A DNA stretch of 64,000 nt from positions 23,622,001 through 23,686,000 of the forward strand of contig NW_027362768.1 in the NCBI RefSeq assembly GCF_046119375.1, in the 5' to 3' direction. Below, in pieces: positions 12,270 through 59,464 of this stretch (positions are counted from its first letter, which is position 1; the number at the start of each line of letters is the position of its first letter). Position numbers and translations under genes: made by a program. Source of the DNA: Phyllobates terribilis. Its lineage: Eukaryota. Under the pieces are notes generated by a model. That model was not told the origin of the DNA, made no database searches, and saw only the letters and a list, made by a program, of their open reading frames with translations.

Positions 12270-13100
12270 ATGGTTTCCATCCAGGATTTGGCTCAACGCC
12301 TGCAGGGATTGTCTCTGGAGGTGGCCGAACTCCAGCAACATGTGAGTAGCTGTTCTGAAGCGCATTTTGTGGAACCCAAGGTAGGACTGCCTGATGTTTT
12401 TATGGTAAACAGCAAGATTTTTTTCCTTTAAAAATGCTTGTTTGCTATATTTTCGTTTGAGACCAATGTCCTCTGGGAATGAATCACAGCGCATTGGTTT
12501 TATTATGTCACTTTTGCGCAAAGAACCACAGGGGTGGGCCTTTTCTCTCCAACCTAATGATCCATGTTTAAGGTCTGTAGAAGAAATTTTTTCTGCTATG
12601 GGGCTATTATATGATAATAATTGATTGAATCTCATCTGCTGAGGCAGAACTCAGGCATTTGAATCAGGGGTCAGGTGATGTTGAAAATTATTGTACACAC
12701 TTCAGAAGATGGGCCTCAGAAGTTAAATGGAATGATCCAGCTCTGAAATGTCTATTTCTTGCTGGTCTGAGTTAAAGGGTTAAGGATTTGCTAATTGCAT
12801 TCCCCGCACCTGAGACTCTGCAGGATGCCATGCAATTAGCTGTTCGTGTGGATAGGAGACTGAGATTTAGACAGAATGAGGTAAAGACTCCTGTAATGCC
12901 AGGTCCTAGTTCCCAGAAAATCTGTTCTGATGGCGGAGAACTGATGGAGGTTGGGGCGAAGTCGCTCCACTCTCTGGAAAGAGACCGGAGGTTCGCGAGG
13001 AATTGTGTCTTTATTGTGGTAAAGCTGACCATTTGATTAAGTATTGTGAGCTTCGTTTAAGTAAAGAAAAGAAAAGGTCAGTTACGCCCGTATAGCTCGT
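12270..13100 (+). pseudogene. gag: Element A gag, frameshifted
   Basis: MVSIQDLAQRLQ..., FRLRPMSSGNESQRIGFIMSLL...QGWAFSL, LAVRVDRRLR, and a CCHC knuckle CLYCGKADHLIKYC. Confidence 0.8.
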
Positions 13101-13139
13101 TTACGCTCTGCAGGAGTATTTCTTTCTGGGAGTACTACT

Positions 13140-16100: not shown

Positions 16101-16245
16101 TGCCAAGCGCTTGAATGCCCGTCAAGCTAGGTGGGCACTTTTTTTTTCTCGGTTTCATTTTTCTGTTACCTATATACCTGGTACTAAGAATGTTAAAGCC
16201 GATGCTTTATCTCGCAGTTCCTCCAACAATTATACTCGTTCCTAA
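13140..16245 (+). pseudogene. pol: Element A pol (protease, RT, RNase H), split by an insertion
   Basis: FVDCGS protease, KIDLRGAY and YLDD RT motifs, [10 protein letters not shown] and ELLAI RNase H motifs. Removing 14516-15838 and one TSD restores ILMQPD-E-TKPF. Confidence 0.9.
14516..15838 (+). mobile_element. Solo Gypsy LTR (1323 bp) inserted into element A pol
   Basis: TGTGG...GCGTCACA ends with TSD ATGA on both sides. The 5' end resembles the LTR at 54800. Confidence 0.9.
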
Positions 16246-17230: not shown

Positions 17231-18194
17231 GTGTGGCACCCCAGGGGGTCTGGTTTCTACAGTGGTAGTAATACCATGTCTGGGAGCAAAACAGGAGTTT
17301 CCTGGTCAGGAACACACTACTTGCAACACGTCCTGCTCCAGACCAGAAAAGGGGAGGATCCTGCCCTTTGTAACTGGATCTGGAGGCGGGGTTAGCCAGT
17401 TCAGTCAGTGTGAGGAGTCAGATAGGACACTAAGGAGCAAGGAGCTGAGGACTGGAGCTGTGCAGAGCTTGTCCTGGCCAGGGTATACAGAGAACCGGAC
17501 ACCGGAGTCCGAGGCTGTGGGACCCTTCAAGCCCAGCAGCAGATACCGCAAGGCAGGAGATTGCAGGTCTCCTGGCCCCCAGAAGCCCGGAGGCTCAGCC
17601 ACATGAAAGGACCAGTACCGCCACAGAGGAGCGAGGAATACACGGGATCCGAGTCGCCAGCCATACGGGTGAGCAGCATGTTACACTCAGGGACGTGGGC
17701 TACAACATGACTATAAGCGGGATAGCTAAAAGAGTACAGTCAGAACGGCAGGCCTACAACTCCACCTGGCCAGGGTAATTCTAGGATTGCTCCCAGACTT
17801 ACCAGGCCCTCATCTCTAGCAAGTACTCCTGTCGGGGTCTATATAATTGTCACCAGTAAAGACCTCAGGACTGCACTGCAAAGACTCCGTGTCATTACTA
17901 CTGATCCAGGTACTATCACCACCATCATCCTTACACGCTGCCCTGAAGCTACACTCTTCCTGTGGGGAGTTACACTACCTTGCTGCGCATATCACCAGCT
18001 TCAGCGGACTGCTCCGCAGCAGCGGTTACTAATAACTGCATTCCACAGGTGGCGTAGTCGGACTATACACATAGACTTCCCTGATTTGACCACCCTGGGT
18101 CACGGACCGGGTCGCCGCCACGGTGACTACTACCCCCAGCATCTACAAGGCCCGGCTCTGGGTATCCCCCACGGCCCAGGGGGCGCGTCAACTT

Positions 18195-18212
18195 TGGTGT
18201 AGTCGGCAGGAT
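18195..18212 (+). promoter_or_regulatory. Primer-binding site, tRNA-Ser (AGA-type acceptor)
   Basis: TGGTGTAGTCGGCAGGAT is complementary (one mismatch) to the vertebrate tRNA-Ser 3' end ...AUCCUGCCGACUACGCCA, recalled from memory. Confidence 0.85.
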
Positions 18213-18497
18213 TTCGTGCCCGCGACCACCGGGTACTGCGCGCCTTCACAGACTGTGTCGCATACCGTGGTGAAGATTTCCCGCCATCTGCTGGCGTTTT
18301 CCCGCCATTGTCTGCAATTTTCGGGTCGCCGCGCGAGAAGAAGAGTGGCGGAACCGCTGGAAACTCACGAAGTTCAAAGCCCCTCCCCGCGCGCTGACGC
18401 AACACCTGGTCCTGGAAGGAACCCCAGTGAGCGCTGACGTCAGACGCGTGCGACGCCAGGTCCTACAAGGAGACCATCGCCTGCGGAACTGCGGCCT

Positions 18498-19535
18498 ATG
18501 GAGGAAAAGAGAAGGAAGGTAGGCCACGGTTCACTATGGGGGAGGAAGACGCCGGATATGGAGGGAACTTCCACCGCCAGCGCGGCCGCTGCCGCAGTGA
18601 TGCCATTCACAATGCCCTATATCCCGGGAGCGGCGTGGCTGCCCCAGTACTTAGGAGAGTCGCACACCCTGAGTGACTTCAAAGAGAGACTAAGCAGCCT
18701 GTTTAAGGTATATCCCCTGTCCGAGGAGCAGAAAGTGAGCATCCTTATAGGCCAGTTAATCGGTGCAGCCCAGAGAGAAGTAAAATCCTGGTCAGCCAGA
18801 GAAAAAGGGACTGTAAAAGAGATACTGGCCTGCCTAAAGGACACTTTTGACACCCGCACCACCGCAGATATAAAAATGAAGTTCTATGGGTGCAAACAAC
18901 GGGCACAGGACAGTGTACGGGACTATGCTTTAAACCTGCAGGAGGCGCTGAGGGCCATCAGACAGGTAGACCCTGATAGTGTGCGTGATGCAAACAGACT
19001 GTTAACTGAACAATTTATTGAGGGTTTACTGTCCAGCGCCCACCGAACCCAGCTGCGCATCATGGCTCTGCAAAACCCTGACTTAGACTTTGCTCAGTTT
19101 AAGGACAGGGCCATCCAGGTGCTACGAGAACCAGCATCAAGTGGCGCTACAGCTCACCGCCGCCCGGCTATCACCTACCACCAGGAGGTGGCACCCTTTT
19201 CCCCAGAGCCTGTAGGAGCTGATGCACAGACTCTGGATAATGCCCCGTCAACAGACCTGCACCATCAGGTCCAAGAGCTAACTAAAAGTGTAGCAGCACT
19301 AACCAAAACTGTGCAGTCCTTGCAGGTGTCCCCCAAAGGAAGGATTCAGCTGGCTTCCAGTCCGGAGGACGTCCCGTGGTGCCGACAGAAGAGGATTCCA
19401 CCATCCAGAGGGAGGAACAGCGACCGCTACGACCAGGACGGACAACCCATCTGCCGCCGCTGCAACCAACCAGGACATTATGCAAGGTACTGTCATTTAA
19501 ACGAGCAAAACCTGGGGCAGTGGGCCAACCCCTAG
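18498..19535 (+). CDS. gag: Element B Gag (capsid plus CCHC nucleocapsid), open reading frame
   Basis: 345-aa ORF with FYGCKQRAQDSVRDYALNLQ, LLTEQFIEGL and CRRCNQPGHYARYC. Confidence 0.88.
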   Translation: MEEKRRKVGHGSLWGRKTPDMEGTSTASAAAAAVMPFTMPYIPGAAWLPQYLGESHTLSDFKERLSSLFKVYPLSEEQKVSILIGQLIGAAQREVKSWSAREKGTVKEILACLKDTFDTRTTADIKMKFYGCKQRAQDSVRDYALNLQEALRAIRQVDPDSVRDANRLLTEQFIEGLLSSAHRTQLRIMALQNPDLDFAQFKDRAIQVLREPASSGATAHRRPAITYHQEVAPFSPEPVGADAQTLDNAPSTDLHHQVQELTKSVAALTKTVQSLQVSPKGRIQLASSPEDVPWCRQKRIPPSRGRNSDRYDQDGQPICRRCNQPGHYARYCHLNEQNLGQWANP

Positions 19536-21800
19536 GCATAAGACCACCAGGCCCATCAAGCTGGCGAGACAAATATGTGGGAGGACGACCGGTCCTACCT
19601 GTCGTGCTGGACGGCTTTCCAATGAGCGCGTTGCTGGACACTGGATCCCAGGTGACCACCATCCCCTACATTCTTTTCAAACGGTACTGGACTGACTCTG
19701 ACATCACCCGCCGTCCAGATGAACATTTGAGCATTTATGCCAGCAATCGTCAGCCTGTACCTCAGGTGGGGTTCAAAGAAGTGACCATAAAGGTTGGCAA
19801 AGTCGAGCTGCCAGCACAAGGACTGATTATTGTCGACATTGATCGCCGAGAAAGTCATCCTATGATAACTTTAGGCACTAATGTCATTGAAAATTGACTT
19901 GCAGAAATAATTGTCTTATTGCAGCAGGTTGCGGAAACCGCCAGTTCCAGCCAGCAGCGCGTTCTACAAAGGAAGATCCGAGCCCTGATGAAAAGACAGC
20001 AGGTAGAACTGTCTGGTGGTGAAATTGGTAGTGTTAGGATGAGCGACCCATTCCCAATCGCCATGCCCCCAAAAAGTGAGATGATGATATGGTGCCGGGC
20101 AGCTATTGGTCTAAGGGGTAGAAATTACTAGACCTTGGTAGAGCCCGTCTACTCTGACAGTAGGTCCACCATTTTGACAGCCAGGGGGGTGATTGATGTC
20201 CGCCATGGGAGGGTACCCGTCCGTATCCTAAACATTGGGGAAAGAGAAGTCCATTTGCCCCGGTATGCCACCCTAGCCAAACTGTTCACTGTCAACCAGA
20301 ATTCTATAAAGACAGTGGAACCCTTGCCTCCATCCCAACAGGCTGAGGATAACTGCTTCAAGGGACAAATGGAGGACTGGTGCCAGAAGCTGCATGTGGG
20401 CACTGACTCCACCCATCCACATCAAAAACAAGGAGTATACAGGGTGGTCCAGGAGTATGAGAGGGTCTTCAGTAAACACCCACTCGACTTCGGGCTGGTA
20501 AAGGGGGTTCAACACCATATCCCCACGGGAGACCATCCACCCATTAAAGAAAGGTATCGGCCTGTACCTCCTGCACACTACCAAAATGCCAAAGGGATGT
20601 TGCGAGAAATGAAGGAGGCTGGGGTAATAAGAGACAGTTGTAGCCCCTGGGCAGCTCCATTAGTTCTTGTAAAGAAAAAGGATGGCACTATGAGAATGTG
20701 TGTAGACTACAGGAAAATCAACCGCATAACACACAAAGATGCATACCCGCTACCCAGGATAGAGGAGTCACTAGCTGCGTTAAAATCTGCTAACTATTTC
20801 TCTACTTTGGATCTTACTAGTGGGTATTGGCAGGTTCTTGTAGCAGAGACGGATAAGGAGAAAACCGCATTCACCACCCCGATGGGCCTCAGCGAGTTCA
20901 ACTGCATGCCATTCGGGCTCTGCAACGCCCCAGGTACCTTCCAGCGGTTGATGGAGTGCTGTCTGGGACATAAGAATTTCGAGACAGTCCTGCTGTACCT
21001 GGATGACGTCATTGTATACTCCCAGACGTATGAGGACCATCTGAAGCACCTGGCGGAAGTGTTTGATGCCCTGGCTGGCTTTGGTCTAAAGGTGAAGCCC
21101 TCAAAATGTCATCTGCTGAAGCCCAAGGTACAGTACCTGGGGCACGTGGTGAGCGCTGACGGTGTGGCTCCAGACCCCGATAAAATCACAGTAATCAAGG
21201 ACTGGCCAAGACCCTCCACCATAAAGGAAGTGCGGCAGTTCCTCGGGTTGGTAGGCTACTACCGAAGATTTATTCCAGGCTTCCCCAAGATGGCGGCACC
21301 CATGCAGGACATCCTGGTAGGCCAGTCCAGGAAGGCCAAAAACCAGAAGCCACCATTCAAATGGGACAAGCTGGAAGATGAGTCCTTCCACCAGCTAAAA
21401 ATGGCCCTCACGGGGGGACGAGATCCTGGCTTACCCTGATTATGGCCAGCCCTTCATCCTCCACACGGACGCGAGCAACGTGGGACTGGGAGCGGTGCTG
21501 TCCCAGATCCAGCAGGGCAGAGAACGGGTAATCGCTTATGCCAGCAGGAAGCTCCGGCCCACAGAAAGGAACCCTGAAAATTACAGCTCCTTCAAGCTAG
21601 AGTTCCTCGCAGTGGTATGAGCAGTGACAGAGCGCTTTAAACATTACCTCGCCTCTCCAAGTTCACCGTATTCACAGACAACAACCCGCTGACACACCTG
21701 GACACTGCGAAACTTGGTGGCCTGGAGCAGAGATGGATGGCCCGACTCTCCAATTATGAGTTCACCATCAAGTACCGGGCTGGGCGCAAGAATGCCAACG

Positions 21801-24800
21801 TGTAGCACCCTGAGGACTCGGCTGCTACAGGGGTATTGCACCTCGACCCAGAGGTGTGGTATTCCACTCCCGGGTAAGGATGGAGTGTGGAACTGAGCTT
21901 AGTAGGCTGCATGCACTACATACATCCCATTTCCGGGGGACAGAACAACGGTACTCCCACCAGTATATGTGCAGGTACGACAGCGTCTGTCCCTGGCTGG
22001 AGTGGGAGGGGGGTGGAACATCCCAGTAGTGTAGGGGCAGATAGGGGGAGTACTCTGGGTAAAGCTAGGAGCCCATTGGGTGCTGGTCACCTGGGTTCAC
22101 ACATAGAGGGAGTATATAAGGTGGGCACCATCTTAGAATAGGGTCTTTGGTCTTTAGTCAGAGAGAGGAGGAGCAGAGCAGAGGAGCTCAGCCAGGAGGG
22201 CTGACAGGGAGCTGTGGCTCCGGCTGGGCCCAGCTCCAGAGCAAAGCCTGCAGTGAAGAGAGAGAGGAGGAAGAAAGGCCCAGAGAAGCAGAGACAGAGG
22301 GAACCCTAAGATCCCAGAATCAGACCAGAAAGGGTGAAGGGTTGGCAGAAGAGGGCACCGGATCCCAAGCTGGCGGAGGCAGAAGTAACCCTTAACCAGG
22401 AACCGGAGGTCGTGGGCAAGTTTTGCCACGACCCTCACCATATCCACCAGGAAGGCACACCACGAGTAGGGCCAGGGAAGCCAGAGAAGGTTCAACCACT
22501 AAGAGGCCCGAGGGAGCTGGACAGAGGTGGATCCCTGGTGGGGACGGCCAGGAGAAAGAGAGTGAAAGGGAAGCTCAGGACCACGCTCCGGAACTGCCTG
22601 GGGGTTAGCCGAGTCCCGCACCTGTTGGACGCAGCACGGCTCGGGTGGTCACTCAAGGCCAGAGTGACTAAAGCAACATCAGTGAGTAAAAACCCTGAAA
22701 CTGCATCTCCTGACTCTGCCTCTCCTTCCTGCATCATCACAACCCCCATCATCCACACCTGCTGCCCTGAGGCCATACCCCTCCCGTTGGGGGTTATACC
22801 ATCACTGCTGCACATATACCACCGGCCTCAGCGGACTGCTCTGCAGCGGCGGCTTCAAAGCCGCACTCAACGGGTGGCGTAGTCGACACTTAAACAACAT
22901 CTACAAAGACTGCCACACACTTAGTTTGACACCCTGGGCACGGACCGGGTCACCTCCACAAGGACTACTACCCCCATACAGATCCGGCTCCGGGTATCCC
23001 TTGAACATGGCCCAGGGGGCGCGTCAACTTTGGCGTAGTCGGCAGGATAACGTGCCCGCAACCACCGGGTACTGCGTGCCTGAAGAAAAGTTCGTATTTA
23101 CCGTAAAAAGAAGTCTCCCGCCAATTCCGGAGGGTCCCCGCCATCGGACGCCATCTCGGATCGGTTCCCGCCGTTTGCCCGCCATCTGCAGTCTTTTCCC
23201 GCCATCCACAGAGTTTCCCGCCATTGGGAAGCGGTTCCCGCCATCTGAGAAGATTTCCCGCCCTGGCAGAGCGGACGCCATTATGGGCGTGCCAGAGGGT
23301 GGCAAGAGGCCACCTCCCATCGTGGGCCAGGACCAAGAATGGCGCCAAAAGCGGAAACCGCCCCCACCAGCAGAGACTGTGATGCTTGAGATGTCCATCA
23401 GCGTGAGGGGACTGCCCCTGGAACTGACAATCACCAAGTTGCCCCGGGACCACCCTCAGGATGGGCGGAGAGAGAACAAAAGAGAGAAGATGGGAGCAGC
23501 TTGGAGGAGTCTAGAGAGAACGCACCCGGAGATGGAGGGAGAGGCAGGCAGCACCGACCCAGTGGTCAGGAGCCTGTTGCAAGCGACTACCCCAGAAGGC
23601 CTGGTGGAGATCCTGGCGCAGCTCCCCAGAGATCGGGAGCATGCACGGACCGCACTGGAGGGCTTGGCTCAGAGGATGGCCCGAGTGCAGCGAGACGTAC
23701 TGGCCGCGTGGAGCAGAGAAATGGCCCAGCAGGCTGGAACCCGCCAGCAAAAGACACCGCCAGCAGCGAGGAGCACGCCTGCCCTTGAAGGAAGAGCAGG
23801 AGGGACGAAGGCCGGAGACGGCGCCGTGGAGGGAGCTGAAGTAACGGAGGCAGGTAATGGGGACGTCTACACCCCGTACCCGGAGGCCGAGAACCTGCCC
23901 CAGCTCCCCGTCGCAGAGCCCGAAATCCCATTCACTGTGCCCGTCGCTGCACCGCCACTGCTCCAAACTAGGCCTCAAGCGGCAGGAGCCGCGGCCGCGC
24001 TCCCCGTGACGTCACGCGCCTCAAATCAGAGTGCGACCAAACAGGAAGCGCCATCGGCCTGGTCACAGGGCAGAGTACCCCCGGGCGCAGCCGTCTCCAC
24101 AGTGCCCTTCACATTCAGAGTGCCCCCGGGCGCCGCGGCAATCATCGCGCCCGCAACCTCCATCATGCTACCCCTGGGAGAAGACTTGTTTACCCAGCAT
24201 ACTTGCCCGGATGGGCAGCCCTTTGTGTGGCCGCCGGAGTTCGTCAATCCCCGACTCCGGAGGGAACGGCCTCTGGATGAGCCCCTGATCCCGGCTCCGG
24301 CGCCCGCCAAGATCACCCCACTCTCGTTGGAGGAGGCGCAGTTCGCGTAGGACCCCACTGGAGAAGACCTCATCGGGTTCACCCAAGAGACCCGGGCGGC
24401 CGCAGCCCAGCGTGCAGAGTGCTGCCGACAGCAGTTAGAGGTCTTCAACAGAGAAAGGAGAGAGAGGCGGGTCCGCGAGGAGCGGCTGCAAATCCGGAGA
24501 GCAGAGCAGAAAATCCGGACCCGACGGAACCCCCGTGCAGCCCACGGTCCCCGTGCCACCGGGACTGTAATCAAATTCCAACTGCAGCACGGTTGGGGCT
24601 TCATCAGGGATCACAAAACCCCCGGTGACGTTTTTGTAACCCGCAGAGATGTCGAGTCTCACCTACCGGAGGGACACCGTGGTCGTGACCTGTACCTGGG
24701 TGACGAGGTCACCTTCACCCGGCACCAGTGTGCCAAAGGACCCTATGCCCTTCATGTACATCGCCTGACGGAAGAAGAGCTGCGGTGTGAGGAGGAACAA

Positions 24801-26595
24801 GAGGACCCGGACGGGTCTGAAGCCTACCCTCAGGAAGGAGCAGGAGGGCATCGTCACCATTAAGAGGTGAACTGAAACTGTATATAGTTACCCGTAAGGG
24901 TATATGCCATGCTGCTTAATTAAAATGAGTTCCCCGTTGGGACAAGTGTGAACTGTTCCAGTGTGTCCCATTTCCCCACAGGCTGAGGACTGTGAGCAGC
25001 CATCCCTTTTTCCCACTGGCCGAGGACTGAGAGCGGCCATATCCATTGTATATAGTTGCGCTTCTTAAAGCGCCCCCTACTGGTTTTATAGGAAACTGTT
25101 TTTTCTACCAGAGACTGTGGCACTTACCTGGTCACAATTTGCACAAGTGGCCAGAGGTCAAAAATGTTTTACATGAAAAGTTTTATTATGCTGAAAGAGT
25201 TAATATTATTTTATGATGTGTCTGTAACATTTTAAGAGAGAAGTACCTCCCATAAAGGGATGGGTTGAAAGTTATATTTTATATGTAAGTGCACTTTCAA
25301 AAATTTGTATGTTTTTGGATATTTTATTCTTTTACAGCCCGAGGACGTGCTGTGATTTACCAGGGGGGAATGTAGCACCCTGAGGACTCGGCTGCTACAG
25401 GGGTATTGCACCTCGACCCAGAGGTGTGGTATTCCACTCCCGGGTAAGGATGGAGTGTGGAACTGAGCTTAGTAGGCTGCATGCACTACATACATCCCAT
25501 TTCCGGGGGACAGAACAACGGTACTCCCACCAGTATATGTGCAGGTACGACAGCGTCTGTCCCTGGCTGGAGTGGGAGGGGGGTGGAACATCCCAGTAGT
25601 GTAGGGGCAGATAGGGGAGTACTGTGGGTAAAGCTAGGAGCCCATTGGGTGCTGGTCACCTGGGTTCACACATAGAGGGAGTATATAAGGTGGGCACCAT
25701 CTTAGAATAGGGTCTTTGGTCTTTAGTCAGAGAGAGGAGGAGCAGAGCAGAGGAGCTCAGCCAGGAGGGCTGACAGGGAGCTGTGGCTCCGGCTGGGCCC
25801 AGCTCCAGAGCAAAGCCTGCAGTGAAGAGAGAGAGGAGGAAGAAAGGCCCAGAGAAGCAGAGACAGAGGGAACCCTAAGATCCCAGAATCAGACCAGAAA
25901 GGGTGAAGGGTTGGCAGAAGAGGGCACCGGATCCCAAGCTGGCGGAGGCAGAAGTAACCCTTAACCAGGAACCGGAGGTCGTGGGCAAGTTTTGCCACGA
26001 CCCTCACCATATCCACCAGGAAGGCACACCACGAGTAGGGCCAGGGAAGCCAGAGAAGGTTCAACCACTAAGAGGCCCGAGGGAGCTGGACAGAGGTGGA
26101 TCCCTGGTGGGGACGGCCAGGAGAAAGAGAGTGAGAGGGAAGCTCAGGACCACGCTCCGGAACTGCCTGGGGGTTAGCCGAGTCCCGCACCTGGTGGACG
26201 CAGCACGGCTCGGGTGGTCACTCAAGGCCAGAGTGACTAAAACAACATCAGTGAGTAAAAACCCTGAAACTGCATCTCCTGACTCTGCCTCTCCTTCCTG
26301 CATCATCACAACCCCCATCATCCACACCTGCTGCCCTGAGGCCATACCACTCCCGTTGGGGGTTATACCATCACTGCTGCACATATACCACCGGCCTCAG
26401 CGGACTGCTCTGCAGCGGCGGCTTCAAAGCCGCACTCAACGGGTGGCGTAGTCGACACTTAAACAACATCTACAAAGACTGCCACACACTTAGTTTGACA
26501 CCCTGGGCACGGACCGGGTCACCGCCACAAGGACTACTACCCCCATACAGATCCGGCTCCGGGTATCCCTTGACCATGGCCCAGGGGGCGCGTCA
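21801..26595 (+). mobile_element. Non-autonomous LTR retroelement CSD-1 (no gag or pol; single ORF with a cold-shock domain)
   Basis: LTRs 21801-23026 and 25371-26595 differ by about 7 substitutions and one indel. TSD AACG, PBS TGGCGTAGTCGGCAGGAT (23031-23048), PPT CCAGGGGGGAA, 2344-bp interior. Confidence 0.95.
23283..24863 (+). pseudogene. About 526-codon ORF: helical N-domain, Pro/Ala linker, coiled coil, C-terminal cold-shock domain; one in-frame TAG at 24348
   Basis: The same frame after the TAG gives TGTVIKFQLQHGWGFIRDHKTPGDVFVTRRDVESHLPEGHRGRDLYLGDEVTFTRHQCAKGPYALHVHRL (about 24561-24767), with RNP1 GWGFI and RNP2 DVFV. Confidence 0.85.
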
Positions 26596-29500
26596 AACGC
26601 ACATGCACTATCCAGGATGCCTAACTTGCCAAATGGGGGAGAAGACCCAGAAGAACTGGAAGAGATAGAAATCCCCGCTTTCCACCGTCATGGGATAACT
26701 CAGTGCTCCCACTGTGTGAAAGACAGGTACTCTGCCACCAAAGAGGCCACGTTCAATCCCTTGCCCCACCACAGCTGGGCAGAAACACAAGACAGTGACC
26801 CGGCCGTCCACCTAGTCAAAGAGTTGCTGACACGAGCCGACTCATACCCTGACCCAGATGCTCCAGAGGAGACCAAACAGCTGTGGAAAGAGAAGAGTAA
26901 GCTGTTCATCTATGAAGGGAAGCTGTGTCGAAGAACTGTCAACTCCCGGACGCACGAGCTGGTCTGGCAGGTGGTAGTCCCGAGGCGGGACGCGTCTATG
27001 GTCTTGGAAGCGTACCACGATGGAGCAGGACACTTCGGATGGAAAAAGCTGGAAGTCCTGCTGCGTGATCGGTTCTATTGGGTTGGCATGAGAGGAACAG
27101 TCGAGAAGTGGTGTCGAGACTGCGGACCGTGCAACCTGAGAAGGAAAGACCGTGCCAGCCAGAAGGCCCATCATCACCAAGCAGCCACTCGAACTGGTAG
27201 CCCTAGACCATGTGAAGCTATCCCCGAGCAGGTCAGGCTATGTCTACGCTCTCACCATCGCAGACCACTACTCCCGGTTCCTGGTAGTAGTGCCAGTCAA
27301 GGACCAAACGGCTCAGACAGCAGCCAGAGCTTTCCAGCAGCACTTCTGCCGCCCGCATGGTTACCCAGAACGTGTGCTAACTGACCAAGGTCCTGCCTTC
27401 GAGGCAGAAGTATTCCAGGAGTTCTGCAACCTGTACGGCTGCAAGAAGATCAGGACAACGCCTTGTCACCCCCAGACCAACGGGATGTGTGAAAAGATGA
27501 ACCAGGTGGTGACAGACCTACTGAAGACATTGCCCCTGGAGGAACGCAGTCTGTGGCCAGAAAAGTTGCCAGACCTGGTGGACCTCTACAATCATATCCC
27601 AGTGAATTCCACCAACTGCACACCAGCGTACCTGTTGCGAGCGAGACCTGGTAAGCTGCCCATCGACCTGGATATGGGAGTTCTGACACCAGAGAACGCC
27701 TCACCAGATGCGGATTGGGACACTGAGTGGCAACAGCAATACCGTAAGGTACAGGAGAGTGTTGAAAGAAGTCTGTCTCAAGCAAGAGAAAGGCAAGAGA
27801 GGACTTACAATTAACATGCACCAGCTGTTCCCCTGTCACCTGGAGAGAAAGTCCTAAAGAGGAAGAGGCGACTTCACAAGTTGGATGACCAGTGGGAAAA
27901 AGAGCCGTACACCATTTTACCATCAAACCATGATAACACCAAAGTGTGCCTCATAAGTAAAGACGGAGGAGAGACCACAGCAACAGTTTCCAGAGACCAC
28001 CTGAAGAAATGTCCCGAGCAGCTACAGCATGCTGAAGAAGGCCAAGATATCCCTCAACCCGCAGAGGAAGTGGAAGAAATGGTCAGCACAGTACTCGGAG
28101 AATTTCCCCAGTCATGGACACAAGTGAATAATGCCATTGTTGTGCCAGTCCTTACATTTCTCCAACCAGCCCCTCAAGCACCTACAGAAGTCTCAGTAGA
28201 GTTGGAAGAACCATTGGCCCCGGAGACAGAAGATTCCTCACCAGCAGACCAGGAGAATCTACCCTCTGCTAGTAGCGAGCCTGTCGTACCCACGGTAAGC
28301 CAAAGGATCCGTAGGAAGCTGCCCAACCTACCAGTGACACCTCAAAATACCAGTAGTGCAGATCACACAGTGCCCACTACACCAGGGGTAGGGAAAGGGG
28401 ACCAGAGCAGAACACAGACAGACAGCGTGTTACGCAGGTCTACCAGAAGCACCAGAGGTCAAATTCCTGCTCGTTGGAGAATATAAAATGTAATGTATAT
28501 TGCAAATGTTTTATGTGTGTATTAATGTGTTTTCCCAGTTAACCGACAGGTTTCAAAGACTTTCAGGTTATGGACAATGGATAACCAAAAACTTTGTCTG
28601 TAAATAGTTGCACCTGGAAAGTGTCCCTTTGTGCCAGACCACAGAACAAAAACCCGTGGAGGTGGCTGAAGACGTGGTCCAACATCCGGATCATCAATGC
28701 CCTGTAGCCACCCCAGGGCCTCCGTGGAGGGTTTGGGATGGGTCCCTCAAACTACATCTTCGGTGAAATGGACACCTGGTTGCGGATGATACCGTGACCT
28801 ATAATGACTGTAAATATGTTCATGTATTGTATATTGTTACCTGTTATACTTTTGCAAGATATGTTCAGTCCCGGAGTACTGAAATTTACTAGGGGGGAAT
28901 GTGGCACCCCAGGGGGTGTGGTTGCCACAGTGGTAGTAATACCATGTCTGGGAGCAAAACAGGAGTTTCCTGGTCAGGAACACACTACATGCAACACCTC
29001 CTGCTCCAGACCAGAAAAGGGGAGGATCCTGCCCTTTATAACTGGATCTGGAGGCGGGGTTAGCCAGTTCAGTCAGTGTGAGGAGTCATAGAGGACACTA
29101 AGGAGCAAGGAGCTGAGGACTGGAGCTGTGCAGAGCTCGTCCTGGCCAGGGTATACAGAGAACCGGACACCGGAGTCCAAGGCTGTGGGACCCTTCAAGC
29201 CCAGCAGCAGATACCGCAAGACAGGAGATTGCAGGTCTCCTGGCCCCCAGAAGCCCGGAGGCTCAGCCACACGAAAGGACCAGTACCGCCACAGAGGAGC
29301 GAGGAATACACGGGATCCGAGTCGTCAGCCGTACGGGTGAGCAGCACGTTACACTCAGGGACGTGGGCTACAACACGACTATAAGCGAGATAGCCAAAAG
29401 AGTACAGTCAAAATGGCAGGCCTACAACTCCACCTGGCCAGGGTAATTCTAGGATTGCTCCCAGACTGACCAGGCCCTCATCCCTAGCATGTACTCCTGT

Positions 29501-31926
29501 CGGGGCCTATATAATTGTCACCAGTAAAGACCCCAGGACTGCACTGCAAAGACTCCGTGTCATTACTACTGATCCAGGTACTATCACCACCATCATCCTT
29601 ACACGCTGCCCTGAAGCTACACTCTTCCTGTGGGGAGTTACACTACCTTGCTGCGCATATCACCAGCTTCAGCGGACTGCTCCACAGCGGCGGTTACTAA
29701 TAACCGCATTCCACAGGTGGCATAGTCGGACTATACACATAGACTACCCTGGTTTGACCGCCCTGGGTCACGGACCGGGTCGCCGCCACGGTGACTACTA
29801 CCCCCAGCATCTACAAGGCCCGGCTCCGGGTATTCCCCACGGCCCAGGGGGCGCGTCATTTGGTTATACTGATACTTATATACAGTATCTCCTTTTTACC
29901 ATTTTGTTAATATGGATACTTCGACGGCAATACTGTGAATACTGTCTCTTTAAAATTTTGACCATAAGACAGATATCATTACTAAACATTGTGTTATGTT
30001 AATAATCTGTTGTTTTGTTTTTACTTTAGAACTGCGCTTAATACATCCCACTTCACGTTTATCTGTGTCCTGACACTATTTTCTAATAAAGTATGTTTTT
30101 CACTGTTGTATTCTTGCTAATATTCTATGTCATGTCACAATTCCCTTTTTCCACTTCCACAGATGCCTAAAAGTTTCTCCTAGCACTTATGCGGTATTTA
30201 CCGCTCATACTATTGTGGATTGCCGACATCCTTTTAGATACCTCTTCCATCCTGACGCCATGTTCCCATACCAACCAGGATGCATATGAACATCCGTAAA
30301 TCGCTTCTTATTGCACAAACTCCGGTCTCCACCCACAGTGATGTCACTTCACCATGACTACTGCGAAGCCTGCATTGCCCAGTCTTTTCTTTTCCCCACA
30401 CGCCCACAGTGAGTGATGACTTTTCCATGTCTACTGCGATGCTTGCAGGATTGTGACGCGCCCCCTGGGCCGTGGTGTTCTCGGCAGCCGGGCAGGTCCT
30501 GTATTGGGGTAGTCTCAGTGGCAGTGACCCGCTCCATGGCCCAGGGCGGTCAAATAAAGAACAGTCAATTGGGGAAATAAAGTTTTTGGGGATAATGTTC
30601 GTGACGCCACCCATGGTATGCGGCTATATGGGGCCAACGCTGCGGTGCAGATCCACTGGGGCTGATGGTGACGCAGAAGATAGTGCAGCTCTTCACGGGC
30701 AGAGCTAAGCTCCAGGGCAGTTTATGGTGATTTGAAAAGATAGATGACAGTGTAGTGCAGGGCTGAGGGCGCAGGTAATGACCAGACAACACAAGAATGG
30801 CGGTTTCCTCTACCTTTACTTGAGGCTTGACGGTGCACACCGGGACACTGGTAATAGCTGGTGATGGAGATCCGGGCGACCTAGAAGCAATTTGGGGATC
30901 CACCTCGCCAGGTGGAGTTGTAGGCCTTCCCTCTGCGCTATCCTCTTTGGCCCTGCTGCTTAAAGCCCTTTTCAGGTGTCGTTCCTTCGTGGCGGCGCCG
31001 GGCCCTAGTATGCTACTGAGCCGCCGGATGTTTGGTGGGGCCAGGAGACCTGCAGTCTCCTGCCCTACGGATTTAGCTGTCGGGACTTTAGTACCCGAAC
31101 AACCACAGGCTCCGGTGTCCTGTTTCTTCCGCTTTTCTCTGGGGCGAGCTTGGTCACAGCTCCTTTCCCCAGGTTCTCCTCGTCGCTCTTCTGTCTCCAA
31201 CTCCCTTTTCTCACTCCAACTGACTTTTCTAGACCCCGCCTCCAGGCTCCAGTTTAAAGGGGAAGCTCCCCTGAAACTGGGATAGAGCTCCCCCTTCCGG
31301 TCTGGGGCCAGGAAATGTGTTGGATGCTGGTGTTACCTGATAAGGGGACCCCTCCTTGCTTCTAGGCATGGCAACACCCCCTGTGAGGGAGGCAATGCCA
31401 ATGTGGCATCCGGACTCCTGGAGTGCCACATTCCCCCCTAGTTAAATTCAGTACTCCCGGACTGAGGACACCTTTAGAATTAAACAATAACGATATATAT
31501 TCCAAAAAAATTTACAAAGTCTCAAAAAGGCAAAAATTGCAGAACAACAAAAACCAAACCAAAATTGGGAGCAGTCATTGGGCACCTAGTCTTTACGCCA
31601 CTATCCAGAAATTGTCTTTTCCCGGGTACATGAAGGTTGGCTGGTGGGAACCGCCTCAACCCACTTCGTGTATCGTCCCTGGGCGTGGCTTCAGGGCACT
31701 CTGTCGGTGGGCCTGGTTTTCGGCCACGCCTGTGGTTTATTTTCAAGGCCAACAATTAACTTTACTCAACATTGTTCTGACCACACCTAGTCCTGTGGTC
31801 CATTTGTCCATAAATATAATAACTATATACACTCACGATTGCTTAAAAGTTCTTACAGGAAGTCTCTGTAGGCTCTCATGCTTAACGGTTGCAATTATAT
31901 ACTATACACTATTATCTTATTACACC

Positions 31927-34900
31927 TTAGTCCTTATAATGGGCAGGGATCTGAACTCTGGTACTATGGGTTGATCTACGCAGTACATTTATTGCCAATG
32001 ACCTACCTGGGTCTCTAGTGTCTACCGCTGGTGTGGTGGGAGCACTATGGACTACACTACAGTTAGTCTGACGTAACACTGGTAGGCTTGGTAGTCTTCT
32101 ACAACCTCTTTGACTCACCATGGGCATGACAGATTCACTGCTAGCAGGGGGTGGATTCATTTGTTTCTCTTCGGTTGTGGCATCTATTGCTGGGGCCGTC
32201 TGGTCTCTCAGCTGTTCTGGAGTCTCTGCGGCTTCCGGTAAAGCTACTTGGGGAAAGGTCAGGACAAGTACCACGATTGCTTGGTTCACCTGCGTCCAAG
32301 ACCGGGGAAATTCTCCAAGGATGGTTTGAACCATCTCTTCCACCTTTTCTGTGTGCTGGGGGCTGTTTTGTTCTTCCTCTTGGTGTCTCAATTGATCAGT
32401 GCATATCTTCATGTGGTCTCTTGAGTCTGCCGCTGAAGTCACTCCTCCATCTTTACTGATGAGGCATACCTTGGTGTTGTCGAAATTTGAAGGTAAGAAG
32501 ACGGTGTATGGCTCAACCTCCCACTGGTCATCTAATTTGTGAACTCGTCTCTTCCTTTTGAGTACCTGTTCTCCAGGTGATAAGGGAACTGCAAGTGCAT
32601 GCTGATTATAAGTTCTCTCCTGCCTCTGTCTTGCCTGGGACAAACTTCTCTCTACACATTCTTTCACCTTGCGGTATTGTTGCTGCCGCTCTGTATCCCA
32701 ATCTGCACCTGGTGATGTTGTCACAGGTGTTAAAACTCCCATGTCCAAGTCAATGGGTAACTTGCCAGGTCTTGCCCTCATCAGGTAGGCGGGTGTACAG
32801 TTGGTGGAGTTCACTGGGATGTGGTTATATAGGTCTACCAAATCCGGTAACTTCTCCGGCCACAGGCTACACTCTTCAAGGGGTAACGTCTTCAACAGGT
32901 CTATTACCACCTGGTTCATTTTCTCACACAACCCGTTGGTCTGGGGATGATACGGCATCGTCCTTATTTTCTTGCAGCCGTACAAGTTACTGAATTCCTG
33001 AAACACTTCTGCTTCAAAGGCTGGGCCTTGGTCGGTAAGCACTCGTTCAGGGTAACCGTGCGGGTGACAAAAGTGTTGTTGAAACGCTTTGGCTGCCGTC
33101 TTAGCCGTCTGTTCCTTCACTGGCACTACTACCAGGAACAGTGGTCTACTATGGTGAGAGCGTAGACATAGCCTGACCATCTTGGGGCTAGCTTCATGTG
33201 GTCCAAGACTGCCAATTCAAGTGGTTGTTTGGTGATTATGGGCTACAGGGGAGCCCTCTGGCTATCACAGTCTTTCCGTCTCAGGTTGCATGGACCACAT
33301 TCTCGACACTATCTCTCGATTGCTTTCCTCATGCCAACGCAGTTAAATCGCTCACGTAGCAGGACTTCCAACTTCTTCCACCCAAAGTGTCCTTCTCCAT
33401 CGTGGTACGCCTCTAAGATCATTGGCGCATCCTGCTTCGGGACTACCACCTGCCAGACCAGTTCGTGTGTCCAGGAGTTGATGCTTCTCTGACACAGCTT
33501 TCCCTCGTAGCTGAACAGCTTGCCTTTCTCCTTCCACAACTATTGGGTCTCCTGTGGAGCATCTGGACCAGGGTGTGAGTCAGCTTGTGTCAGCAACTCC
33601 TTTACTAGGTGGACAGCCGGGTCGCTATCCTGCGTCTCTGCCCATCCATGGTGGTGCAATGGGTTAAACGTGGCCTCTCTGTTGGCGGAGCGCTTGTTCC
33701 TCACACAGTGGGAGCCCTGGGTCACCCCGTGACAATGGAAAGCCGGTAGCTCCATCTCCTCCAGCTCTTCCAGGGTCTTCTCCCCCATCTGGCAAGTTGG
33801 GCATCCTGGACAGCACATTAGCATTAGCATTTTTATGCCCCGCCCGATACTTGATGGTAAACTCGTAGTTGGACAGCTGGGCCATCCATCTCTGCTCCAG
33901 CGCACCTAGCTTCGCCGTTTCAAGGTGGGTCAGCGGATTATTGTCTGTGAAAATTGTAAACCTTGCTGAAGCCAGGTAGTGTTTGATGTGCTCTGTTACA
34001 GCCCAGACTATGGCTAAAAACTCCAACTTGAAGTAACTATAGTTGTCGGGGTTCCTTTCCGTGGGACGGAGTTTCCTGCTGGCGTAGGCAATCACTCTCT
34101 CTCTACCCTGCTGTACCTGGGATAGCACCACTCCCAATCCCACGTTGCTGGCATCCGTATAGGGTATAAAGGGTTGGCCATAGTCGGGCTAGGCCAGGAC
34201 TTTCTCTCCCGTAAGAGCCACCTTCAGTCGAGTGAAGGATTCTTCTTCTTTTTTACTCCACTTGAACGGAGGATTCGAGTTCTTGGCCTTCTTGGACTGG
34301 CCCACTAAGAGGTCCTGCATGGGTGCCGCTATCTTGGTGAGACCCTTGGATGAATCCCCTGTAGTAGCCTACCAGCCCGAGGAACTGCCGCACTTCTTTG
34401 ATAGTGGAGGGTCTTGGCCAGTCCTTGATCAAGGTGACTTTTTCAGGGTCTGGTGCTACACCTTCGGTGCTTACCGCATGGCCTAGGTACTGCACCTTGG
34501 GTTTCAACAGGTGCCACTTGGACGGCTTTACTTTCAGGCCAAAACCGGATAAGGCCTCAAACACCTCAGCCATGTGCTCCAGGTGGTCTTCATATGTCTT
34601 TGAGTAGATGATTACGTCGTCCAGGTACAGCAGAACGGTTTCAAAGTTTTTGTGTCCTACGCAACACTCCATTAACCGCTGGAATGTTCCCGGGGCATTG
34701 CAGAGCCCGAATGGCATGCAGTTGAACTCGCAGAGGCCCATTGGTGTCGTAAACGTGGTCTTCTCTCTGTCCGCCTCTGCCACGGGAACCTGCCAGTACC
34801 CACTGGTGAGATCTAAAGTGGAGAAATAGTTAGCGGATCTCAGTGCAGCTAATGATTCCACAATTCTGGGTAATGGGTAGGCGTCCTTATGTGTAATGCG

Positions 34901-36139
34901 GTTAATCTGCCTATAATCAACACACATCCTCATTGTACCATCTCTCTTTCTAACGAGGACTAATGGAGCTGCCCAAGGGCTACAACTATCTCTGATCACC
35001 CAAGCCTCCTTCATCTCCCGTAACATTCCCTTGGCACATTGATAGTGAGCTGGAGGTACAGACTGGTACCTCTCTTTAATGGGCGGATGGTCTCCTGTGG
35101 GGATATGATGTTGGACCCCTTTTACCTGCCCAAAGTCTAGTGGGTGTTTGCTAAAGACTCGCTCATATTCTTGGACCACCCGGTACACCCCATGCAAAGG
35201 GGTGGAGTCAGTGCCTACTTGTAGCTTCTGACACCAATCCTCCATCTGACCCTTGGAGCCATTGTCCTCCGTCTGTTCGGACGGAGGCAAGGGTTCCACT
35301 GCCTTTATTGCATTGTTACTGACAGTCAGTGAACAGCTTAGCAAGGGTGGCATATCGCGGTAAATGGACCTCTTTCTCCCCACAATTCAGGATGAGTATC
35401 GGTAATCTCTCCTTGCGGACATTGACTACCCCTCTGGCCGTCAAGATGGTTGGCCTACTATCAGAGTACACGGGTTCTACCAGGGCCTGATAATCTTGAC
35501 CCCTGAGACCTATTGCTGCTCGACACCATATTAACATTTCACTCCTAGGGGGCATTGCAATGGGGAATGGATCACTCACTCTGACACTGCCGACTTCTCC
35601 ACCAGACAGCTCTACCTGTTGTCTCTGCATTAGGGCTTTGATCTCCTTCTGCAGAACTCGCTGCTGACTAGAACTGGCAGTGTCTGCGACCTGTTGCAAC
35701 AAAACAATAATTTCCCCAAGACAATTCTCTATCACATTGGTGTCTAAGGTTATCATAGGATGGCTTTCTCGGCGATCAATATCTACAATAATCAACCCTT
35801 GTGATGGCAATTCTACTCGGCCAACCTTTATGGTCACCTCTTTATACCCCTTTATACACCTCTTTATACATGAGGCCAGGGCTGACCATTGCTGGCATAG
35901 ATGTTAAAGTGTTCACCTGGACTGCGGGTAATGTCTGAATCAGCCCAGTATCGTTTAAAAAGGATATATGGCATCGTTGTCACCTGGGAACCAGTGTCCA
36001 GTAACGCGTTCATCGGGATGCCATCAAGCACGACAGGTAGGACCAGTCGTCCTCGCATATACTTGTCTCGCAAACTTTGTGGGCCTGGTCATCTTACTCC
36101 TGGGGGTTGACCCTCTGCCCCAGGGGTTGTTTGTTTAAA
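31927..36139 (-). pseudogene. pol: Element E pol, with multiple frameshifts
   Basis: [33 protein letters not shown] and GLCEKMN. Confidence 0.92.
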
Positions 36140-37079
36140 TCGCAGAATATTGCGAGGTGCCCCGCCTTTTGACAGCGGCGGCAGATGGGTTGTCCGTTCT
36201 GGTCGTAGCGATCGCTGTCTCTCCCTCTGGTCAGTGGAATTCTTCTCTGCTGTCGCCCCGGGACGTCATCTGGACTGGAAGCCAGCTGGATTCTTTCCTT
36301 TGGAGACACTTGCATGGCCTGCATGGTTTTGGTTAGTGTAGCCACACTTTTGGTCAGCTCCTGGACCTGAAGGCGTAGGTCTGCAGAGGGGTCATTATCT
36401 AGGGTCTGCGCGTGAGCCTCCACAGGTGCCGGGGAGAAGGACGCCACCCCCTGGTGGTATGTGATAGCTGGGCACCGGAGGAATGCAGTGCCACTTAGGG
36501 TTGATTCTCGCAGCACCCGGATGGCCCGGTCTTTAAATTGCGCAAAGTCCAGATCAGGGTTTGGCAGAGCCATAATGCGCAGCTGTGTCCGGTGAGCGTT
36601 AGACAGGAGCCCCTCGATAAACTGTTCGGTTAGCAATTTGTCCTCGTCTCGCACACTGTCGGTGTCTACCTGTTTAATGGCCCGCAGTACCTCCTGCAGG
36701 TTTTGAGCATAGTCTCGTACACTGCCTTTTGTTTGCAGCCATAAAACTTCATTTTAATCTCCGCTGCCGTGCGTGTGTCAAAGGTATCCTTTAACCTGGC
36801 CAGTATTTGCTTAACAGTGCTTTTGTCCCTGCCCGGCAAGGACTTCACCTCCCTCTGGGCTACACCGATTAGCTGGCCTATAAGGATGCTGACTTTTTGC
36901 TCCTCAGACAGGGGGTACACTTGGAACAAACTTCGCAGTCTCTCCTCAAATTCGCTCAGGGTGTGCGACTCCTCTGAGTACTGGGGCAACCACGCCGCCC
37001 CTGGAATATACGGCATGGATAAAGGCATTACAGTGGCGGCGGTCGCGCCCGCAGCTGGATCCTCTCCCAGGTTGGGCAT
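36094..37079 (-). pseudogene. gag: Element E gag, frameshifted
   Basis: MPYIPGAAWLPQYSEESHTL..., LLTEQFIEGLL and CRRCQKAGH, homologous to element B Gag. Confidence 0.88.
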
Positions 37080-38691
37080 CTTCCTCCCCCCCAGTGAACC
37101 TCAGACATGTCCTGACTCCTGGGTTTCGGCTGGCGCACCAATCTGCTGCTCTGCAGGCGAGAGGGATCGCTTACCCCGCGGTTCCCGATCGGGCCTCCTG
37201 CTTTCCCTCCGCTGACGTCAAATCACGTTATTATATAGCTCAGCAAAGTCTATGGCACACAACACCCAGTTATACCGGGCTAAAATACTGTTCGTGACGC
37301 CAAGTATGGCGCTCCTCCTGGGCCGTGGGGTACTTGGTCCTGTATTGGAGTAGTCTTGGTGATACTGACCCGGTCTGTGGCCCAGGGCGGTCAAATAAAG
37401 AACAGTCAATTGGAGAAATAAAGATTTGGGGATAATGTTGTGACGCCACCCGTGATATGCGGCTATATGGGGCCGCCGCTGTAGTGCAGATCCACTGGGG
37501 CTGATGGTGACGCAGCATAGATGGTTCAGCTCTCCACAGGCAGAGATAAGCTCCAGGACAGTATATGGTGATTTGAAAAGGTAGATGTTGTCGGCAGGGA
37601 CAGTGTAGTGCAGGGCTGAGGGCGCAGGTAATGACCAGACAACACAAGAATGGCGGTTTCCTCTACCTTTACTTGAGGCTTGACGGTGCAGACCAGGGCA
37701 CTGGTAATAGCTGGTGATGGAGATCCAGGCGGCCTAGAAGCAATTTGGGGATCCACCTCGCCAGGTGGAGTTGTAGGCCTTCCCTCTGCGCTATCCTCTT
37801 TGGCCCTGCTGCTTAAAGATATGCTGCGGCCCTCGTTCCTGAACAATCGTTTATTCCTCGCCGTATGGCAGGCAGCTCGAGCCCTTTTCAGGTGTTGCTC
37901 CTTCGTGGCGGCGCTGGGCCCTAGTATGCTACTGAGCCGCCCGATGTTTGGTGGGGTCAGGAGACCTGCAGTCTCCTGCCCTCCGGATTTAGCTGTCGGG
38001 ACTTTAGTACCCGAACAACCACGGACTCGGGTGTCCTGTTTCTTCTGCTTTTCTCTGGGGCGAGCTTGGTCACAGCTCCTTTCCCCAGGTTCTCCTCATC
38101 GCTCTCCTGTCTATAACTCCCTTTTCTCACTCCAACTGACTTGTCTAAACCCCGCGTCCAGGCTCCAGTTTAAAGAGGAAGCTCCCCTGAAACCGGGTTA
38201 GAGCTCCCCCTTCTGGTCTGGGGCCAGGAAATGTGTTGGATGCTGGTGTTACCTGATAAGGGGACCCCTCCTTGCTTCTAGGCATGGCATCACCCCCTGT
38301 GAGGCAGGCAATGCCAATGTGGCATCTGGACTCTTGGGGTGCCACAATTGCACCACCTGTTCCTCTCGTAACACGCCCTTCATTTAAGTGCTCACTGGCT
38401 AGTCTGCTGTCCTAAGGTGACACTCCTCCACGATGACGCATGAGCCCATCCTACTTACACCATGCCCTTATTGGTCCATCTTTTCTATTTAGTAATTGGT
38501 CTCTCTATTTAAACCAGGAAACTCCTATCTTACACTAGTGCTTACGCTCCTTATAGCAGTGGATACAGAGGAACAAGCTGGTATACTTTTGCACTGTTTC
38601 TGACCTTATGTTCCTGGGCAGTTTGGTAATTCATATTTTTTGTCTTGTTTCCTCATTCTGGGCTGTCCAACTGCCGATAGGGCATGGTATA

Positions 38692-59155: not shown

Positions 59156-59464
59156 AAAGCATCAGCGAGAAAGGGGAGGCTCCATAAATGTCGCTTAGGT
59201 TTGCAAACCCTCATTTCACCTCTTAGACTTGAACATTGACTTTGGATTTATGGCACAGAGAACAGTGGAACTTTGGGGGTATTACTGCGGGTGCCTATGG
59301 TGAAAAGCTTTAGTTACCTACAGTGGCTTAACTAGAGTCCGATGGGACCCAGTGCAAAATTTGGACCTGTTGCCCCACCTGCATATTGTTCAGAAGTATA
59401 AGCCCTTGAAGTGTTCTAGTTCATACAAAGATATACTGTACGTGTTCGCCCTCCCATGCAATAA

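Follow-up and report, generated by a model that had tools for sequence, protein, structure and literature searches.

A predicted nested double pseudoknot in the 3′ untranslated region of a clade of frog Ty3/Gypsy retrotransposons and their pol-less derivatives

We analysed a 64,000-nucleotide (nt) stretch from the frog Phyllobates terribilis (contig NW_027362768.1, positions 23,622,001 to 23,686,000; hereafter the window, whose own coordinates are used throughout), a nest of retrotransposons bearing long terminal repeats (LTRs) within a 10.6-Gb genome. Our subject is an RNA motif of about 100 nt carried in the 3′ untranslated region (UTR) by one Ty3/Gypsy clade of frogs and by its pol-less derivatives that encode a cold-shock domain (CSD). 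Gypsy elements have been reported to occupy roughly a gigabase of a poison-frog genome and to be strongly expressed in the germline (PMC6278860). The cis-acting RNA signals of vertebrate Ty3/Gypsy elements have barely been described, and it is from the Gypsy group that capsids of the PNMA, Arc and PEG10 type derive.

Two elements of the window, B (17232-29858, plus strand; delimited by Pfam, self-BLAST and flanks) and E (30453-38346, minus strand; LTRs 30453-31430 and 37336-38346), show the make-up of Ty3/Gypsy retrotransposons: an LTR pair, a primer-binding site (PBS), a polypurine tract, and gag followed by protease, reverse transcriptase, RNase H and integrase. In both, gag is PNMA-like, reverse transcriptase, RNase H and integrase are present, and the primer is tRNA-Ser. 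Pfam searches of B also found a zinc knuckle in gag and a protease, the frames being broken; its LTRs (17232-18190 and 28900-29858) are 96% identical by self-BLAST, and its flanks show a 4-bp target duplication. The PBS of B (18195-18212, plus strand) complements the 3′ end of tRNA-Ser of the AGA/TGA type, that of E (near 37302, minus strand) is of the CGA type, and a polypurine tract lies ahead of the B 3′ LTR (28890-28899, plus strand). An AGTAAA polyadenylation signal was present in the three LTRs inspected, and a search for an env-like open reading frame (ORF) between the pol stop and the polypurine tract of B and E found none. Frogs supply the named homologues (Rana temporaria, 43%; P. 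terribilis, 93% across a quarter of the query). The pol genes of B and E are 77-78% identical, yet their 3′ UTRs give no blastn alignment.

Two further elements, which we call CSD-type, are pol-less LTR elements with a long ORF terminating in a cold-shock domain. CSD-1 (21801-26596; LTRs 99.3% identical) is inserted within B, where a 4-bp target duplication flanks it (21797-21800). CSD-2 (52570-56021) is represented by its 3′ part, of its LTRs only the 3′ one lying within the window. The first-pass annotation of this DNA had taken CSD-2 for a non-coding element; it lacks pol yet bears a CSD-like ORF with 47% identity over 110 amino acids to the Pfam-positive ORF of CSD-1.

The motif copies which that annotation had placed at 28661-28748 (B), 31730-31644 on the minus strand (E) and 54321-54412 (CSD-2) are all there, and they are exactly the three exact matches to the core pattern in the window. 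Genome-wide, the core pattern has 12,999 exact matches (6,636 and 6,363 on the two strands) and the reversed control has 0 on each; a pattern leaving helix P1 free gives 16,938 and 10,088 matches, overlapping duplicates counted, against 135 and 95 when reversed. The motif follows the last ORF and precedes the polypurine tract in 48 of 48 parsed UTRs, at 155-325 nt past the stop codon. Among the first 30 loci, pol lay upstream in 21, a CSD-type ORF in 7, only a weak match to a CSD element in one and neither in one. When ten CSD-type loci were fetched whole, nine had an LTR-like repeat pair that brackets the motif with no pol match between (the tenth, L295, was ambiguous), so pol-less elements do carry it; the bracketing repeats are 90-97% identical. 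Comparison was confined to copies from a single genome, with sparse sampling of families at about 45% to 60% integrase identity. Assembled contigs from four runs, three of which may be RNA, span the region.

The same order of strands was found in 83 distinct copies. From the 5′ side, an A-tract is followed by the 5′ strands of helices P0 and P1 (P0a and P1a), a long loop, P3a, two bases, P1b, P3b, a linker, P4a, a loop ending in P0b, and P4b. The long loop carries the word GGYCCA throughout and a hairpin, P2, in some families only. Because the loops of hairpins P3 and P4 both pair, by their 3′ sides, with one upstream strand, the predicted fold consists of two nested pseudoknots. In B (plus strand) the A-tract and the P0 5′ strand ACCCGT occupy 28648-28657, and the latter pairs with the P0 3′ strand in the P4 loop (28738-28743); the P1 5′ strand GGTGGC (28661-28666) pairs with GCCACC in the P3 loop (28707-28712). 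Hairpin P3 (GCCCTG, 28699-28704; CAGGGC, 28714-28719) thus forms the first pseudoknot and hairpin P4 (GAGGG, 28727-28731; CCCTC, 28744-28748) the second. The invariant GGYCCA of B (28676-28681) and hairpin P2, GGTCC/GGATC, together take up 28676-28692, and GGYCC has a potential alternative partner in the P1 5′ strand. The E copy (31644-31744, minus strand) has P0, P1, P3 and a P4 of GTGGG/CCCAC; its P0 (31736-31732 with 31654-31650) has one broken pair which is whole in sister copies. The CSD-2 copy (54307-54412, plus strand) has P0 (54312-54316 with 54402-54406), P1, P2, P3 and P4.

The a-b-a′-b′ strand order with a following hairpin, as first described, is therefore present in all three copies, and that order is found in P0/P4 as well as in P1/P3. 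The description had P1/P3 and P4 right but lacked the P0 knot, P2 and the absence of the motif from CSD-1. Its label of H-type pseudoknot suits the strand order, not the geometry. A classical H-type knot has a short first loop, a second of 0-1 nt and a third of at least 3 nt; the P1/P3 loops measure 25-33, 2 and 0-2 nt, and with such lengths the knot probably does not stack in the classical way. Sequence in L2 and in most linkers is little constrained and varies freely, and some copies have a deletion of part of the long loop.

The P0-P4 fold is inferred from comparing sequences, and several helices change in concert. P0 occurs as ACCTG/CAGGT, ACCCG/CGGGT, ACCGC/GCGGT and a U.G form; P3 as GCCCTG/CAGGGC, GCCTTG/CAGGGC, GCCTTG/CAAGGC and ACCTTG/CAAGGT, retrieved with search patterns that left P3 or P1 free; and P4 as GAGGG/CCCTC, GTGGG/CCCAC, TGGGG/CCCCA and AGGGG/CCCCT. 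Compensated changes between subfamilies, with U.G intermediates, are thus seen in P0, P3 and P4, the last bearing out the earlier claim that the downstream hairpin covaries. The variable pair of P3 is C-G in 25 copies, U.G in 5, U-A in 9 and unpaired in none, and elsewhere in P3 a G-C pair has become A-U in two. Every stem but P2 is kept between B and E although their 3′ UTRs cannot be aligned by blastn. A descriptor of the double knot free of sequence constraints found it in 29 of 48 motif-bearing UTRs in sense, in 1 of 48 in antisense and in 0 of 27 other UTRs. The U.G intermediates of P0 and P3, with added support from this difference between strands, point to a structure that acts in the sense RNA.

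When 39 hand-picked copies were aligned by MAFFT without fitting, 84.8% of cells were paired, compared with 34-51% when the partners were slid (P0, 91%; P1, 98.5%; P3, 97%; P4, 84%; P2, 46%). Seven variable pairs underwent 32 changes on internal branches, and 26 of these end in a pair; when the partners were swapped, the figures were 10 of 38 and 13.6 of 38. In the core columns of P4 and P0b, which were never part of any search pattern, 0 changes are internal and 23 are terminal, while the linkers show 70 and 109 (Fisher p 3e-5); for GGYCCA and the loop UU the counts are 0 and 11 (p 0.008). This contrast is what would be expected if the motif mattered during element replication and decayed after insertion. 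Together, these comparisons show that the stems and a few unpaired bases (the A-tract, GGYCCA and the two U that open the P4 loop) have been held by selection. The covariation is modest for single pairs and clear when summed.

Helix P1 behaves differently from the covariation first proposed for it. Its sixth pair does swap between G-C and C-G and is formed in 64 of 94 copies, with A.C, T.C or C.C in other subfamilies, but its five core pairs never covary. By eye, where the 3′-strand G is missing the 5′ partner of the sixth pair is A, T or C, a freedom that fits a bulge.

The motif lies within a wider 3′ UTR cassette. Upstream of it in B (all plus strand) are a hairpin with GGAC in its loop (28566-28586; identified by eye, uncounted), whose stem is GGTTAT/ATAACC, GGCTG/CAGCC or GGCCG/CGGCC depending on the family, a consensus match to the Pumilio-response element, TGTANATA (28599-28606), and, 3′ of the latter, a small GCAC/GTGY hairpin (28610-28624). 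Downstream are a conserved ATGGAC word with the hairpin GGTTGC/GTGACC (28768-28799; GGTCAC/GTGACC or GGTTAC/GTAACC in other copies) and a second Pumilio match (28809-28816). Further sense-strand TGTANATA sites occur in E (31831-31824), in CSD-2 (54242-54249) and in the CSD-1 UTR. Across 48 related motif-bearing UTRs there are 1.69 TGTANATA sites per UTR against 0.06 in shuffled and 0.02 in antisense sequence, and GGAC occurs 3.69 times per motif-bearing UTR (control 1.28), 5.67 times in a young motif-less family (1.23) and 2.53 times in distant families (0.79), all of these ratios being descriptive only because the copies are related. No TGTANATA enrichment was found in the adjacent pol or in distant families. 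The fifth base of TGTANATA is T in 33, A in 23, G in 21 and C in 11 cases over all 75 UTRs; the Pumilio element consensus, UGUANAUA, is reported to have a variable fifth base likewise (bioRxiv 10.64898/2026.03.10.710821). Since the roughly three- to fivefold GGAC enrichment spans motif-bearing, motif-less and distant families, GGAC display seems to predate the knot and to be more widespread than it.

GGAC/RGACH words often stand in hairpin loops with covarying stems (UTRs L001-L288). These words fit the m6A consensus; the loops could alternatively be Gag-binding loops. Two other candidate signals of the UTR were rejected: an internal ribosome entry site, as a conserved ATG opens only 3-99 codons (median 11; 36 copies), and a splice-acceptor-like tract after the pol stop, which is not enriched (45 of 48, compared with 46 of 48 in pol itself).

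No Rfam family matched the motif, either in the window at the gathering threshold or in five further loci, the best local match being Prion_pknot (14 of 39 bits, E 5.4). It was also undescribed in the literature searched, from which most subscription journals, Repbase and Dfam were absent. LTR retroelement RNAs are already known to contain structured cis elements, and the nested double knot seems to be a variant of these that has yet to be described. The closest model is the musD transport element (MTE), whose export function is reported to need a kissing loop together with a pseudoknot (PMC5767303). Both are structured cis elements of an LTR retroelement with long-range loop pairings, and in the MTE the topology is said to matter (PMC5767303); like it, our motif is a non-coding structured element of an unspliced RNA. 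However, musD is a type D endogenous element rather than Ty3/Gypsy, Rfam offers no link between the two, and the frog motif packs two nested knots, each joining a loop to an upstream strand, into about 100 nt, with export predicted only. A second likeness is to Ty1 and Ty3, in which a pseudoknot or 3′ UTR signals are reported to be required for LTR-element retrotransposition (PMC4974528). The Ty1 knot differs in lying at the 5′ end, and in our tests neither tRNA bridging nor cyclisation by the motif rose clearly above chance. Lastly, dARC1 is reported to require its own 3′ UTR and PEG10 to bind its own UTRs (PMC12968388), so Gag-like capsids can select UTR sequences, and the gag here is PNMA-like. 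These are domesticated genes, no such knot is described in the part of that source available to us (PMC12968388), and binding of our motif is a prediction only.

We tentatively favour the reading that the motif is a cis-acting scaffold in the sense RNA which helps to export or package the genomic RNA. One 5′ strand, comprising the A-tract, P0a and P1a, would be captured by the loops of the downstream hairpins P4 and P3, and the compact fold would act as a binding platform, displaying its unpaired bases beside the Pumilio elements and the hairpins with GGAC loops. This platform could let the unspliced genomic RNA be exported, retained or localised and then be passed to Gag for packaging, on the model of the MTE. 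Pol-less elements would have retained the motif since they require the same RNA handling in trans. The first-pass annotation had likewise proposed a cis-acting RNA in pol-less elements, and the part of that proposal that stands is a conserved, sense-strand structure which they share, with selection on its stems. Export and packaging are plausible functions. If so, the motif could reveal how Gypsy genomic RNA is selected for either step, or yield a new compact fold, and a 100-nt fold with natural compensatory variants, deletions and a replacement scaffold is a small and cheap object of study.

Several results weigh against this reading. Twenty protein-anchored young copies divide into ten with and ten without the motif, and the ten without it form a young autonomous family (0 of 10). 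A tree built from the final 600 nt of pol, which includes 9 of them, shows this motif-less family with short branches and nested within the motif clade with starred support, although UTR recombination may be a caveat to that placement, and a 32-nt marker of its UTR has 15,454 exact genomic matches. The CSD-1 family has the motif in 0 of 30 copies and more distant families in 0 of 50 loci, some of them truncated. In a tree-aware G-test over all pairs (94 copies, flank-derived tree), none was significant; this home-made, R-scape-like test has low power and mis-registers about five copies in which the P1 5′ strand has changed. When restricted to the 24 predicted pairs, the test gave significance for the sixth P1 pair alone (E 0.023), with P0a4, P4a1 and P4a2 at E 0.17-0.30. 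The five core pairs of P1 are invariant and so lack covariation; both sides of its U-A pair have changed at three loci genome-wide, of which one is compensated. In the RNAalifold prediction P3 is retained, but the partner of the P1 5′ strand is GGYCC, a choice that makes P1 the least certain helix and a switch possible. Single-sequence folding is unremarkable (z -0.97 to -1.78, sense no better; nested model only). Moreover, the results fit export, packaging, stability or translation alike.

The covariation check thus gave no pair that is significant overall and summed changes that favour pairing. The earlier argument that retention without pol implies an obligatory function is not supported by the counts for CSD-1 and the young autonomous family; rather, the motif, as we read these sequences, is helpful but replaceable, not essential. 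Under the export or packaging reading, the young family would have made a different scaffold that displays GGAC at the same site, and CSD-1 would have retained the hairpins only. The CSD-1 3′ UTR (24864-25362, plus strand) lacks the whole pseudoknot block and retains GGAC hairpins and Pumilio elements, two of each, along with the small hairpin, and so serves as a natural negative control. At the same UTR place, the young motif-less family (L250 and L258; for instance, L258:735-930) has a 14-bp stem around GGAC/AGAC loops and a GGGG/CCCC hairpin, the loop of which resembles the P4 loop and may form a 5-bp pairing with an upstream strand. Three B-like motif-less copies (L032-L034) were rejected as true losses as insertions interrupt them, all at one GT-rich spot right after the pol stop, an instance of mutual insertion.

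A bolder proposal, which we consider doubtful, is that the nested knots ring the 5′ strand and stop the exonuclease XRN1, or form a switch with two states that Gag or Pumilio reads. If true, a vertebrate Ty3/Gypsy element would make a protected subgenomic 3′ RNA or toggle between translation and packaging, giving a retrotransposon XRN1-resistant RNA (xrRNA) or switch with a new fold, for which motif-bearing and motif-less sisters would be a natural comparison.

The XRN1 block on its own is unlikely. XRN1 would stall at the A-tract while reverse transcriptase, arriving from the 3′ side, passes, and Pumilio-driven decay would leave a stable 3′ fragment. Fitting this, the 5′ strand is paired into two hairpin loops right after an unpaired A-tract, Pumilio elements lie about 50 nt upstream of the knot, and viral xrRNAs, reported to be pseudoknot rings, likewise place a 3′ UTR pseudoknot near an unpaired 5′ strand (PMC11499389). 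However, no described Rfam class matches the motif at the gathering threshold or at E values up to 5-10, its resistance is hypothetical, and a fragment without the PBS has no evident use. To our knowledge, most pseudoknots do not stop XRN1, which also counts against the block, and our literature search found no report of an xrRNA in retrotransposons.

We rate as rather improbable a translation enhancer or a translation/packaging switch like that of Turnip crinkle virus, in which the P1 5′ strand would alternate between the P3 loop and GGYCC. In that virus a loop-to-upstream-strand pseudoknot is reported to require five upstream adenylates, and our A-tract with P0/P4 resembles this arrangement; its H4a/Psi3 region is also a 3′ UTR double pseudoknot with adenylates beside a loop-to-strand knot (PMC5336357). 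The rival hairpin of RNAalifold is retained in 32-39 of 39 rows per pair, and GGYCCA is invariant even where P2 fails. Yet all changes in the rival hairpin are one-sided, no ORF lies downstream of the motif, and the element RNA, expected to be capped and polyadenylated (AGTAAA), would not need a cap-independent enhancer. The helix layout also differs, as the virus is an uncapped plant virus with a three-hairpin T shape and our knots are nested on one 5′ strand.

Less probable again is an aid to reverse transcription, whereby invariant words would pair with tRNA-Ser or the RNA 5′ end, or the P3 loop, of 2+6+1 type, would dimerise. GCCAC of the P3 loop complements bases 7-11 of both primer tRNAs and AACC their T arm, Ty3 offers a precedent with two PBS segments reported in the 3′ UTR (PMC4974528), and an outside partner would account for a P1 core without covariation. 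But the chance of such a tRNA match is about 0.12 across six invariant words, P0 changes abolish the match, the 5′-3′ duplex was not above shuffles in 24 of 24 elements by a coarse test, and the P3 loop is not self-complementary. A coupling of the sixth P1 pair to the primer looked perfect in ten CSD-type elements, B and E and was gone in 21 more motif-bearing elements whose PBS was found among 40 regions fetched (G/AGA 9, G/CGA 4, C/CGA 6, C/AGA 1, decayed A/CGA 1). A tRNA-derived origin was also rejected: p<0.05 was reached in 1 of 39 copies in sense for each tRNA-Ser, and in 6 and 7 of 39 in antisense, the same as for a tRNA-Gly control (6 of 39).

That the fold has no function, being shared by descent with short GC-rich complements that are chance or DNA-level signals, seems very improbable. 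The data do come from one genome and one clade in which independent changes are few, the all-pairs test gave no significant pair, and successful families lack the motif. Set against these are the contrast between internal and terminal branches, pair-preserving changes in three helices, and the stems (bar P2) kept by B and E despite unalignable 3′ UTRs. Chance matches also look different: 103 pattern matches in metagenomes, dismissed as such for want of an integrase match, show P0/P4 in 2 of 103 cases versus 22 of 30 of our own loci. Scans of viral and metagenome contigs at the protein level turned up no relative.

Catalysis is unlikely, and a new class of self-cleaving ribozyme is the least probable explanation of all: ribozymes are common in retroelements and the motif is compact, about 100 nt long and doubly pseudoknotted with some invariant unpaired bases, but a cut between PBS and polypurine tract severs the template, L2 and most linkers are free to vary, the long loop is partly deleted in some copies, no Rfam family matches, and CUGANGA/GAAA look-alikes occur in some families only. 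The earlier view that the motif is neither an HDV nor a hammerhead ribozyme was correct. HDV-like ribozymes have a nested P1-P2-P3-P1.1-P4 order with a catalytic C in J4/2, and the helix order here differs on both strands; the hammerhead core sets CUGANGA, GAAA and a UH site around three helices, and here the look-alike words occur in the B and E types only, with no UH site.

The CSD-1 family is young: all 150 scored matches are 97-100% identical, open frames reach about 730 amino acids, and a first look gave 41,330 candidates genome-wide. Our literature search turned up no description of pol-less CSD-encoding LTR elements, and the sole database match to the CSD-type protein is an uncharacterised frog protein. 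Xenopus 1a11, lambda-olt 2-1 as well as xretpos are comparable as pol-less frog LTR elements with early-embryo transcription, although the available part of their description mentions neither a cold-shock domain nor an RNA structure, and the comparison is by description only (PMC4585706). CSD-2 also has, 3′ of its motif in the 3′ UTR, a 75-bp inverted repeat (54481-54635), 95% complementary with a 5-nt spacer.

A second PBS-like word, CAGGTGGCGT followed by tRNA-Ser-type bases, lies within LTRs about 150 nt before the LTR end (18046-18063, 15652-15669 and 55852-55869). A hairpin directly 3′ of the PBS (about 18217-18240; leaders L363-L402) has an RCCAC loop resembling the P3 loop, and the loop word is kept when the stem changes, except in the E type. 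In nine copies (L336, L339, L344, L347-L350, L354 and L359), 10-45 further bases belonging to the body of tRNA-Ser extend the PBS, as though reverse transcription had continued into the primer. The rest of the window holds a BED-zinc-finger ORF (46584-47498), a second, unrelated Gypsy remnant split by a solo-LTR-like segment (13065-16245) and tandem arrays with 136-, 32- and 17-nt units (49908-50721, 59446-60292 and 8222-8799).

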